Below, in pieces: positions 766-53,554 of a stretch of DNA of 64,000 nt. Within the stretch, counting starts at the first letter, position 1. The number at the start of each line of letters is the position of its first letter. A program made the position numbers and the translations under genes. The stretch spans positions 18,655 to 82,654 of the forward strand of contig JACRMS010000032.1 in the NCBI GenBank assembly GCA_016214845.1. Direction: 5' to 3'. This DNA is from Nitrospirota bacterium (GTDB taxonomy: Bacteria > Nitrospirota > Thermodesulfovibrionia > UBA6902). The notes below the pieces were generated by a model. It ran no database searches, was not told the origin of the DNA, and was given only the letters and a program-made list of their open reading frames with translations.

Positions 766-1027
766 ACAATTGAAACAGCTATTATCTTTCAACAACATCG
801 TTTACTGTCAGAAATAATCCTTCCGTTTTTATATCGGTTGAAATATAATCATATACCTCTCTGAATTATAGAGAGGGCTTATGGCTCTTAGAAAACAGGA
901 TAGATAACCTAAAGAAACTTGGCGAGGGCAGGATTAAACATGTCGCATTTATATAACACCAGCTTCAAAAATAGCGTGCTTGTACGATCCGCGAATTGCT
1001 GAACAGCATTAGGGGGAAGCTGTAATT

Positions 1028-1813
1028 ATGACCATTCCAGTTTTAAACGCATCTTCACTTCAACGGGTTCTGCCATCCGGCAGGACTAAGCCCTGTATTT
1101 TTTTCTGCGAAGATGAAAGCGGTGATAGCAACGGCGAATATGTTGTTAAGCTCAAAGCAGGAATGGAAAATGGGGTGAACGGTCTTGCGGCTGAACTGAT
1201 TGCATCTCAACTGGCAGCTTTCCTTGATATCCCCACTCCAGAACCTGCTATAATTGAAATAGACCCGTTGCTGGCAGAGGTTATTTCTGATCCTGCTCTC
1301 TCACGGAAAATCAAAGGAAGCTCCGGACCGAATTTCGGCAGCAGGGTGATAACCGGCGGTTTTGAAACATGGCCTGTAGGCAAAGCAATACCTTCAAGTT
1401 TGCGAACATTAGCGGCAGAGATATTCGCCTTTGATGCACTGATACAAAACCCTGATAGAAAGGTTAAAAAGCCGAACATCCTTTGGAAAGGTGACGATTT
1501 ATATATCATAGACCATGAAATGAGTCTGATGTTTATATATGAAATATTGCCGATGCCAACTCCGTGGCAGATAACAAATTTGAACTTTATCAAAGATCAC
1601 TTGTTTTACGAGAATCTGAAGGGGCAGGCAGTGAATCTCGACCGATTTGCCGGGGCACTTGAACTGTTGACTGATAATGCCATGGAAACAATTCTTACAA
1701 ATGTGCCAGAGGATTGGCGAAGCAACAACATATCAAAAATTACAACCCATATCAACGAGATTATGCATCATAGAAATAGTTTCATCGACGAAATAAGGAG
1801 GGCGTTACAATGA
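1028..1813 (+). CDS. HipA-like Ser/Thr kinase family protein (short, catalytic-domain-only form)
   Basis: 261 aa. Catalytic-loop-like FDALIQNPDRKVKKPNILW matches the HipA GNTDxHxKN loop, and a downstream IIDHE resembles the activation motif. RBS AGGGGGAAG lies upstream of the ATG. The stop overlaps the next start (ATGA at 1810-1813). Confidence 0.55.
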   Translation: MTIPVLNASSLQRVLPSGRTKPCIFFCEDESGDSNGEYVVKLKAGMENGVNGLAAELIASQLAAFLDIPTPEPAIIEIDPLLAEVISDPALSRKIKGSSGPNFGSRVITGGFETWPVGKAIPSSLRTLAAEIFAFDALIQNPDRKVKKPNILWKGDDLYIIDHEMSLMFIYEILPMPTPWQITNLNFIKDHLFYENLKGQAVNLDRFAGALELLTDNAMETILTNVPEDWRSNNISKITTHINEIMHHRNSFIDEIRRALQ

Positions 1814-2652
1814 AGATACCTTATAGTTTCTCAATCCTGAGATATATTCACGATATCGTATCAGGTGAGTTCATCAACGTTGGCGTTGTGCTATATGCTC
1901 CTAAGGCGAGATTTCTTAGCACTGTCTGCACGTCAAGATACGGCCGCATTTCAAAAATGTTTTCAAATATAAACGGCGACCACTTCCGACAGGTCTCAAG
2001 ATACATTCAGGCAAGGCTTGAGGAAGAAGGTGAGCGTTTGCTTACTGAACTCCCATTTGAGAAAATGCCGGTTAGTGTGAAAGATTTTACTCCAAAGGTG
2101 TTGCCTATAGATGACAGTTCGCTGCAATTCTCCCCAGAAGGATATGGATTGACGGACAACCTGCAGGAAACTCTTGAACAGATTTATAACCGTTACGTAG
2201 AAAAGTATTATGAAAAAACAGAACGACAAAGCAGAAGCGATGAAGATGTATGGAAGATTTATAAGAGGCCTCTCGAGGAAAAACACGTCATTGCCAGCCT
2301 CAGACCTCACCAGATTATTGGTAACAACTATGATTATGAATTTAAATACTGCTGGAAAAATGAGCGCTGGCATATTCACGAGCCGGTCTCTTTCGATTTA
2401 TTAGAAGCTACTTCTATCACCGACAAAGCAAATACATGGGTAGGACGAATCACGAGCCTGATTGATGGCGGAGAGCTTTTTAAGTTAAATGTTTTGATAG
2501 GGTCTCCGCAGGATGAGAAGTTAAAAGCAGCCTTTATTAAGGCACAAAATATATTAAACAGAATGCCATGCGACCATGAATTTATACGAGAAGAAGAGGC
2601 AGAGGATTTCGCAGAAAGCCTTAAAAAGGAAATTGAGACGCACAAAGCATAA
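1810..2652 (+). CDS. DUF3037 domain protein
   Basis: 280 aa. The N-terminal YSFSILRYIHDIVSGEFINVGVVLYAP matches the conserved DUF3037 N-terminus. Translationally coupled to the upstream kinase-like gene. Confidence 0.6.
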   Translation: MKIPYSFSILRYIHDIVSGEFINVGVVLYAPKARFLSTVCTSRYGRISKMFSNINGDHFRQVSRYIQARLEEEGERLLTELPFEKMPVSVKDFTPKVLPIDDSSLQFSPEGYGLTDNLQETLEQIYNRYVEKYYEKTERQSRSDEDVWKIYKRPLEEKHVIASLRPHQIIGNNYDYEFKYCWKNERWHIHEPVSFDLLEATSITDKANTWVGRITSLIDGGELFKLNVLIGSPQDEKLKAAFIKAQNILNRMPCDHEFIREEEAEDFAESLKKEIETHKA

Positions 2653-2708
2653 CGATTCGCAGAGCAATCCTACTGACAGATATATGCAATCCCAACAGGG
2701 AAGAACCC

Positions 2709-3305
2709 CTACAAATTCCCTGTCTTCCTATACTCCTCGACGTAGCGTTTAAGCGCCCGGAAGAAAAGCCAGTCGAGAGAGAGATTATTATCGGCTGAGA
2801 TGTTGATTAACTGGTCGATGATCTCTTTATCAATGGCAGGCTTATCAGATGAGGAGGCATCAGGGATTTTTTCTTCCTGAACAGTATCTACTGAATTGCC
2901 GGTCCTCTTTTTATACTCTCTTGCAAGCAGCTCCATGAGCGAGCTGACATCGCCGGACTGAACACTTTTGACAACATCTTCAGGCGGAGCACCAGGGACA
3001 TTTGATTGTTCATCTGAGGCGGCATCAGTTTTATCTGAAGGTTCAGCATTAATGTTTTCAGACGGGACAGGAGGGATTGCAGGAGCCATCATGCCGGTCA
3101 TGCCCATCATCATCTCTGCCAATTTTCTGGCATGTTCATTGTCGGGCATTTCTCTCTTCAGAAACTCATCAAACTTTCCCTGAGCCATAGCCACGGCCAA
3201 TTGATCGGCCATCAGTGGCTCCCTGTTTTCATTGTCCTCAAAAGACCTCTTTCTTCCAAAGGGTGTTGACGGCGGTTTTGGCAGGGGCTTTTCTTTCTTT
3301 GACAT
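2709..3305 (-). CDS. Hypothetical acidic, Met/Pro-rich protein with a conserved-looking C-terminal segment
   Basis: 198-aa ORF with an ATG start. Low-complexity middle (MMMGMTGMMAPAIPPVP) and C-terminal DWLFFRALKRYVEEYRK. Convergent with the DUF3037 gene. Confidence 0.35.
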   Translation of the reverse strand: MSKKEKPLPKPPSTPFGRKRSFEDNENREPLMADQLAVAMAQGKFDEFLKREMPDNEHARKLAEMMMGMTGMMAPAIPPVPSENINAEPSDKTDAASDEQSNVPGAPPEDVVKSVQSGDVSSLMELLAREYKKRTGNSVDTVQEEKIPDASSSDKPAIDKEIIDQLINISADNNLSLDWLFFRALKRYVEEYRKTGNL

Positions 3306-6135: not shown

Positions 6136-6210
<75 letters not shown>

Positions 6211-14636: not shown

Positions 14637-14714
14637 TGGCGTCCCCAAAGGGATTCGAACCCTTGTTACCGCCGTGAAAGGGCGATGTCCTAGGCCGGGC
14701 TAGACGATGGGGAC
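14637..14714 (-). tRNA. tRNA-Glu (anticodon UUC)
   Basis: Reverse complement GTCCCCATCGTCTAGCCCGGCCTAGGACATCGCCCTTTCACGGCGGTAACAAGGGTTCGAATCCCTTTGGGGACGCCA. Anticodon loop CTTTCAC; CCA encoded. Confidence 0.8.
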
Positions 14715-14716
14715 AC

Positions 14717-14792
14717 TGGTGAGCCGCGTTGGATTCGAACCAACGACCCACGCCTTAAAAGGGCGTTGCTCTACCTACTGAGCTAGCGGCCC
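14717..14792 (-). tRNA. tRNA-Lys (anticodon UUU)
   Basis: Reverse complement GGGCCGCTAGCTCAGTAGGTAGAGCAACGCCCTTTTAAGGCGTGGGTCGTTGGTTCGAATCCAACGCGGCTCACCA. Anticodon loop CTTTTAA; CCA encoded. Confidence 0.85.
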
Positions 14793-53478: not shown

Positions 53479-53554
53479 GGGCAGTTAGCTCAGTCGGTAG
53501 AGCAAGGGACTGAAAATCCCTGTGTCCGCAGTTCGATTCTGCGACTGCCCACCA
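53479..53554 (+). tRNA. tRNA-Phe (anticodon GAA)
   Basis: GGGCAGTTAGCTCAGTCGGTAGAGCAAGGGACTGAAAATCCCTGTGTCCGCAGTTCGATTCTGCGACTGCCCACCA; CCA encoded. Confidence 0.85.

Follow-up and report, generated by a model that had tools for sequence, protein, structure and literature searches.

The window analysed here, a stretch of 64,000 nucleotides from a Nitrospirota bacterium (contig JACRMS010000032.1), carries near its start two adjacent genes, encoding a HipA-like kinase and a protein with a DUF3037 domain, and a convergent open reading frame (ORF) for an acidic protein (Table 1). An earlier note, made from the sequence alone, had read the pair as a toxin-antitoxin or anti-phage module. The core of that reading stood: the two genes form a conserved, coupled pair, the homologues of which have been validated as HipAD/DS-6, and by its sequence the locus is a full member of this family and of the PDC-M66 group of the PADLOC database.

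We found that the kinase matches PADLOC profile PDC-M66A with an E-value of 4.7e-68 (residues 2-260 on profile positions 9-269 of 270), and that the DUF3037 protein matches PDC-M66B with an E-value of 2.9e-84 (residues 4-279 on profile positions 3-279 of 281). Adjacency, order and strand of the genes are those of PDC-M66; no difference was detected, and the pair is a typical core member of the group. PDC-M66 itself is a bioinformatic candidate label only, without a mechanism. In Pfam, the kinase matches HipA_2 (PF20613; E 2.7e-22) and not HipA_C (PF07804), the family that the earlier note had named. Neither HipA_C nor the N-terminal HipA domains were found in the kinase by the Pfam scan, which, together with its catalytic loop, agrees with the description of a short HipA-type kinase that lacks the N-terminal domains. 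The second protein matches DUF3037 (PF11236), as had been anticipated, at residues 7-130 only (E 7.8e-18).

The stop codon of the kinase gene overlaps the start codon of the DUF3037 gene in an ATGA, as previously noted, and an AGGAGG Shine-Dalgarno sequence falls within the 3' end of the kinase gene. Both genes stand out by their composition. Their GC contents are 0.431 and 0.409, against a mean of 0.498 (s.d. 0.036) for the 50 genes of the window. GC at third codon positions (GC3) is 0.42 for each, the lowest of the 50 genes, against a window mean of 0.572 (s.d. 0.06); the lower-GC patch reported earlier is real.

Table 1. Features of the kinase-DUF3037 locus and its borders (positions in the window)
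Feature	Position	Strand	Basis or remark
Kinase gene, HipA_2 family, 261 aa (PDC-M66A; homologue of phage HipA toxin)	1028-1813	+	ORF, Pfam, PADLOC
DUF3037 gene, 280 aa (PDC-M66B; homologue of phage HipD antitoxin)	1810-2652	+	ORF, Pfam, PADLOC
Acidic Met-rich ORF, 198 aa	2709-3305	-	ORF; convergent with the pair
Inserted DNA, approximate, ~1.87 kb	~826-2692	+	Alignment to empty site in related Nitrospirota contig L085
Hairpin/palindrome CCTCTCTG-AATTA-TAGAGAGG	856-876	+	RNA fold -13.8 kcal/mol, z -2.9
Shine-Dalgarno-like GGGGGAAG, 8 nt before kinase ATG	1012-1019	+	Sequence
Translational-coupling junction: AGGAGG (1796-1801) and ATGA (1810-1813)	1796-1813	+	Sequence
DUF3037 N-terminal domain, aa 1-131	1810-2202	+	Domain of the 280-aa protein
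C-terminal alpha/beta domain, aa 144-280, apparent restriction-endonuclease-like fold	2239-2649	+	Domain of the 280-aa protein
Right-border hairpin CAGGGAAG...CTTCCCTG	2695-2723		Fold -10.9 kcal/mol, z -2.6; kept in L085

Homologous systems and conserved residues

Experimental work by others on homologues bears directly on the function of the pair. In the Retron-Sda1 operon, deletion of the HipA-like kinase gene led to the loss of defence against phage Bas51 and deletion of the DUF3037 gene was toxic, while the reverse transcriptase and the noncoding RNA were dispensable (PMC12548924). In DS-6 (DefensePredictor), mutation of a catalytic residue of the kinase likewise resulted in the loss of defence, and AlphaFold3 predicts an interaction between the A and B proteins and a weaker one between B and DNA (PMC13092281). 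DS-6 was, according to the latter paper, renamed HipAD by Brenes & Laub 2025. The earlier statement that DUF3037 has no established function is therefore outdated.

The phage PhiR5_1 (PV340545.1) carries, between cI and kil, genes annotated in GenBank as 'HipA toxin' (249 amino acids) and 'HipD antitoxin' (275 amino acids). The window kinase is 30% identical to this HipA over 171 amino acids (BLASTP, E 2e-10), and the DUF3037 protein is 28% identical to HipD over 221 amino acids (E 4e-12; hhalign probability 98.2%). The phage proteins match the same Pfam and PADLOC profiles as the window pair, PhiR5_1 HipA being itself a HipA_2 protein (9.7e-77). Like the window pair, HipAD consists of a HipA_2 kinase gene placed first and a DUF3037 gene that overlaps it by 4 nt, with products of 249 and 275 versus 261 and 280 amino acids, and the kinase catalytic residues and the N-terminal DUF3037 motif are common to both. 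HipAD differs from the window pair in sequence, as the identities above show, and its proteins match the PDC-M66 profiles only at their margin (E ~1e-15). In addition, HipD lacks six residues invariant in the window's clade (N184, E191, S194, D196, K206 and G212). The setting is also different: HipAD belongs to the immunity region of an E. coli prophage, whereas the window pair is chromosomal and solo in a member of the Nitrospirota.

The locus is not canonical HipBA, and it appears not to be HipBST either. Canonical HipBA combines a kinase that has HipA_C and N-terminal domains with an upstream helix-turn-helix partner, HipB; the window pair has none of these and its order is reversed. No HipB-like helix-turn-helix ORF lies upstream, the sole ORF in the 262-nt leader being one of 27 amino acids. 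The departure from the HipBA layout that had been described earlier, with a DUF3037 rather than a helix-turn-helix partner, and downstream, was thus confirmed. The possibility that DUF3037 represents a detached N-subdomain of HipA, similar to HipS, found no support. Helicobacter pylori CtkA, PI4K type II and actin-fragmin kinase have no detectable sequence homology to the window kinase, differ in their biology and are without a DUF3037 partner.

The catalytic loop of the kinase, LIQNPDRKVKKPN, comprises residues 138-150. The predicted catalytic residues, K41, E56, D136, N141, D143, R144, N150 and D162, showed no variation in the relatives (124 of 124), and phage HipA has the same residues at these positions. 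Because of this invariance, and of the identity with the validated phage HipA, the window kinase should be catalytically competent. A profile of the kinase gave a non-significant result with E. coli HipA in hhalign, so that sequence comparison did not show an alignment of the catalytic Asp and Asn to HipA. The assignment to the HipA class therefore rests on the fold and on the identity with phage HipA. The earlier note had made its reading depend on the catalytic Asp and Asn being kept; in the relatives and phage HipA the catalytic Lys, Asp, Asn and Asp are invariant. The kinase is a compact atypical Ser/Thr-type enzyme of the PI3/4-kinase-like/HipA structural class. Comparison of both proteins and of the kinase profile with PDB sequences returned chance matches only (designed armadillo repeats, a viral polyprotein).

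In the partner protein, the N-terminal DUF3037 motif (R11, Y12, E20, F21, N23, G25, R46 and F51) is the sole part conserved family-wide, HipD included, and for this reason we infer that the N-terminal domain is the kinase-neutralising module. The C-terminal domain appears to fold like a restriction endonuclease. Four of its residues, E191, S194, D196 and K206 (also N184 and G212), are invariant in the window's clade and replaced in phage HipD, making this set a clade-specific feature, for which DNA binding, sensing or a residual nuclease site are candidate roles. No Pfam family matched residues 131-280, even at E<=1. DUF1829, reported as a second Pfam domain of DS-6B, was undetected by hmmscan, both in the window protein and in PhiR5_1 HipD; given the apparent restriction-endonuclease-like fold, the missing match may be an issue of sensitivity.

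These features raise two further readings of the partner. It might, in the main clade, be more than a passive antitoxin, its nuclease-fold domain working as a nuclease or a sensor of nucleic acids, able to recognise DNA or RNA of a phage and thereby to release the kinase or cooperate with it. We consider this doubtful; if true, the system would be a kinase defence coupled to a sensor, with a mechanism other than that of the validated HipAD. The main clade keeps E191, D196 and K206, but their position is non-classical for a PD-(D/E)xK enzyme, and functional HipD has K, T and H instead. A reading in which the roles are reversed or shared, so that the C-terminal domain would be the active nuclease or effector and the kinase would regulate it, appears improbable.

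Conservation of the pair and its insertion

A scan of one genome per GTDB species yielded at least 273 DUF3037 loci, of which we analysed the best 80. These loci, at 38-87% identity, were patchily distributed across at least 10 phyla (Nitrospirota, Acidobacteriota, Verrucomicrobiota, Desulfobacterota, Bacteroidota, Pseudomonadota, Planctomycetota, Omnitrophota, Fibrobacterota, Gemmatimonadota and others). The kinase gene was found directly upstream and on the same strand in 70 of the 80; two had no room for it and eight were true orphans, giving 70/78. The reverse test, a metagenome scan with the kinase profile, produced 80 loci, 69 of which could be evaluated (at least 300 nt downstream). DUF3037 was immediately 3' of the kinase in all 69, as well as in two viral contigs, the phage and a Hymenobacter plasmid. 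The two genes are thus neighbours when viewed from either side. The 4-nt overlap, [AG]TGA, recurred in 60 of the 61 loci that could be evaluated, more than chance would give, and in most cases a GAGG-type Shine-Dalgarno sequence preceded it by 8-10 nt. The kinase was never alone, while 8/78 DUF3037 genes were without a kinase, an asymmetry that follows toxin-antitoxin logic.

The orphan DUF3037 genes had as neighbours PIN toxins, restriction-modification (R-M) fragments, a SIR2 gene with an ATPase, or insertion sequence (IS) elements, which suggests that the toxin gene decayed or was exchanged inside defence or mobile regions. Individual orphans were seen beside a SIR2-like gene and a HerA-like ATPase (L043, 6721-10852), a kinase remnant, PRTase and terminase (L036, 7359-10837), an IS1595-type transposase (L069, 457-2013) and an HsdM fragment (L040, 9521-10846). 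The Nitrospirae metagenome-assembled genome (MAG) JACRHD01 holds two diverged copies (L005, 9586-10840; L010, 9222-10840). In one copy the kinase is missing, and the DUF3037 gene, which is 86% identical to that of the window, follows a PIN toxin gene and the gene for the S subunit of a type I R-M system; the second copy has both genes and is 66% identical. On the Hymenobacter plasmid (NZ_CP043645; L084, 4177-5840) DUF3037 is broken into two ORFs, and the pair is bordered by transposases of the IS3 and ISKra4 types and by a recombinase.

The window copy is an insertion. In the related Nitrospirota contig L085, the acidic ORF has a homologue (62% identity) that converges directly on genes for a TPP (sulfopyruvate-decarboxylase-like) enzyme and a PALP enzyme, with no pair between them, which makes this an empty site. 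In the alignment, homology between the window and L085 extends through the TPP stop codon to position ~826 and resumes at ~2693. A second contig, L087 from the SURF_23 MAG, has the same cluster without the pair, and the pair lies on another contig of that MAG (L009). The surroundings of the pair are not conserved: the window neighbours (the acidic ORF, the TPP enzyme, CMD and NMT1-like genes) had no homologues in any of the 80 loci, and cassettes as similar as 82-87% had no sequence in common outside a stretch that starts ~25 nt ahead of the ATG and ends at the final stop codon. Indeed, in an alignment of seven cassettes, conservation among the close ones starts near the Shine-Dalgarno-like sequence before the kinase gene. 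Since even such similar cassettes differ outside, the transferable unit is essentially the two coupled ORFs. The empty site, the low GC3 and the variable flanks together indicate that the pair was horizontally inserted between housekeeping genes as a mobile cassette.

At the borders of the insert we found no target-site duplication, terminal repeat, integrase or transposase, only short repeats at chance level, and no tRNA or Rfam element was associated with it. The window has four tRNA genes, Gly-CCC, Glu-TTC, Lys-TTT and Phe-GAA (6136-6210, 14637-14792, 53479-53554); none of them adjoins the insert, so the cassette is not integrated at a tRNA.

The insertion also bears on whether the pair could be a housekeeping signalling kinase and its partner, tied to the PALP and TPP genes. 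These lie upstream on the same strand as the pair, and no strong promoter or terminator was detected between them and it. However, the site is empty in a relative, the GC3 of the pair is the lowest in the window, the distribution is patchy over at least 10 phyla, no other locus has related flanks, not even at 82-87% identity, and linkage to PALP or TPP is not conserved in the 80 loci. We therefore regard this explanation as highly improbable.

Proposed function

We propose that the locus is a two-gene, toxin-antitoxin-like anti-phage cassette of the HipAD/PDC-M66 type, acquired horizontally as a bare two-ORF unit, and give this reading a probability of about 0.78. The kinase would be the growth-arresting effector. 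The ATGA overlap would cause the DUF3037 protein ('HipD') to be made in a fixed ratio with the kinase, which it would bind and neutralise in uninfected cells, most likely via its N-terminal domain. Upon phage infection the inhibition would be relieved, and the kinase would phosphorylate an essential target, aborting the infection. Family membership, gene order and coupling, the conserved catalytic residues, the insertion and the toxin-never-alone asymmetry were established here, whereas the kinase requirement, the loss of defence in a catalytic mutant and the toxicity upon loss of DUF3037 come from the work on homologues. Direct binding by the N-terminal domain, the trigger, the target and activity in the Nitrospirota host are what we infer beyond these results.

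Several observations weigh against the proposal. There is no defence island in the window, where, beyond the pair, PADLOC matched only generic ATPases. No conserved promoter or operator was found upstream of the pair, either in the cassette alignment or in a promoter scan, which remained at background. The validated E. coli phage system is only ~28-30% identical to the window proteins, and at the clade-invariant residues the partner's C-terminal domain departs from HipD, so details of regulation may differ.

The same genetics could belong to a selfish addiction cassette or a stress or persistence module with no anti-phage role, in which the kinase would arrest growth when a labile partner is lost. 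A toxin that is never alone, orphan antitoxins and tight coupling are all typical of toxin-antitoxin systems, the cassette is a solo insertion amid housekeeping genes, and canonical HipA acts in persistence, as cited in PMC13092281. Yet two independent homologues protect E. coli from phage, the named HipAD system occupies the rex position of a lambdoid prophage, and ~29% of the relatives lie in or beside type I R-M operons, others being found beside PIN, SIR2, Mrr or helicase genes. On balance, we consider a module devoted to addiction or persistence to be unlikely.

Type I R-M genes were present within 10 kb in 23/80 related loci, often with hsdM-hsdS directly upstream and hsdR downstream, and the commonest families among 143 immediate neighbours were HSDR_N, Methylase_S, ResIII, N6_N4_Mtase, SWI2_SNF2, UvrD, Mrr and PIN. 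In the window, by contrast, the neighbours belong to the core genome (GMP synthase, adenylosuccinate synthetase, PGDH, riboflavin genes, LepA, tRNAs and similar). The family is thus often embedded in defence regions and the window copy is solo: the association with defence islands, which the earlier note had proposed to test, is seen in part of the relatives and not in this copy.

In many relatives the pair sits inside a type I R-M operon, in the order hsdM-hsdS-kinase-DUF3037-hsdR (L006, 6394-9173; L051, 6332-9192; ~10.9-14 kb downstream in L034, L046 and L047). Such embedding matches the guilt-by-embedding logic behind the PDC candidates. The pair of L051, from an Enterobacteriaceae MAG, had no match in complete E. 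coli genomes by blastn.

As the type of system has already been catalogued (PDC-M66) and validated (HipAD/DS-6, the Retron-Sda1 operon), the locus does not open a new category. New here are the conservation of the overlap in 60/61 loci, the toxin-never-alone asymmetry, the empty site with the insertion, and the apparent fold of the partner's C-terminal domain. The value of the locus is mainly comparative. The core clade of the family occurs widely among environmental phyla (Nitrospirota, Acidobacteriota, Verrucomicrobiota and others). The mobile unit is a minimal one of two ORFs, with near-universal ATGA coupling and frequent type I R-M embedding, and the conserved nuclease-fold domain of the main-clade partner differs from the E. 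coli version that has been studied. Such comparisons could help to direct studies of the kinase substrate, of what in the phage acts as trigger, and of the roles of the DUF3037 and C-terminal domains.

The convergent ORF and other features

The convergent ORF encodes a protein that is, as described earlier, acidic and Met-rich (pI 4.9; 11 Met, or 5.6%), with an EMMMGMTGMM cluster and no Pfam family. We rejected the suggestion that it is a third component of the system. Proximity alone, a gap of 56 nt in convergent orientation, speaks for a three-component system. Against it, no homologue of the ORF was found within 10 kb of the pair in any of the 80 related loci, its homologues occur beside the same PALP and TPP genes without the pair, its GC3 is host-like (0.50 versus 0.42 for the pair), and the SURF_23 MAG has the pair and the ORF on separate contigs. 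A three-component system can hence be given next to no weight; the acidic ORF is a conserved lineage-specific host gene.

The acidic ORF has more than 500 homologues in Nitrospirota (for example L085, 2926-3522, and L087, 178-747), which are syntenic with genes for the PALP and TPP enzymes, a CCG-domain protein, DUF6951 and a RACo-like protein.

Elsewhere in the window, the PADLOC profiles mad3, mad8 and AriA matched two proteins (E 1e-10 to 1e-39), and one protein matched HEC-02A. These are most likely generic ABC-ATPase cross-matches rather than defence genes, two of the proteins being ABC_tran in Pfam.

Two hairpins lie near the pair. The left one, upstream of the kinase and within the insert, has a perfect 8-bp stem and no T-tract, and belongs to a leader that is not conserved among related cassettes; it is possibly the terminator of the upstream operon or an operator. 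The right one, at the right border, is host-derived, being present at the empty site too; it extends into the 3' end of the convergent ORF of the host and probably acts as a shared terminator.

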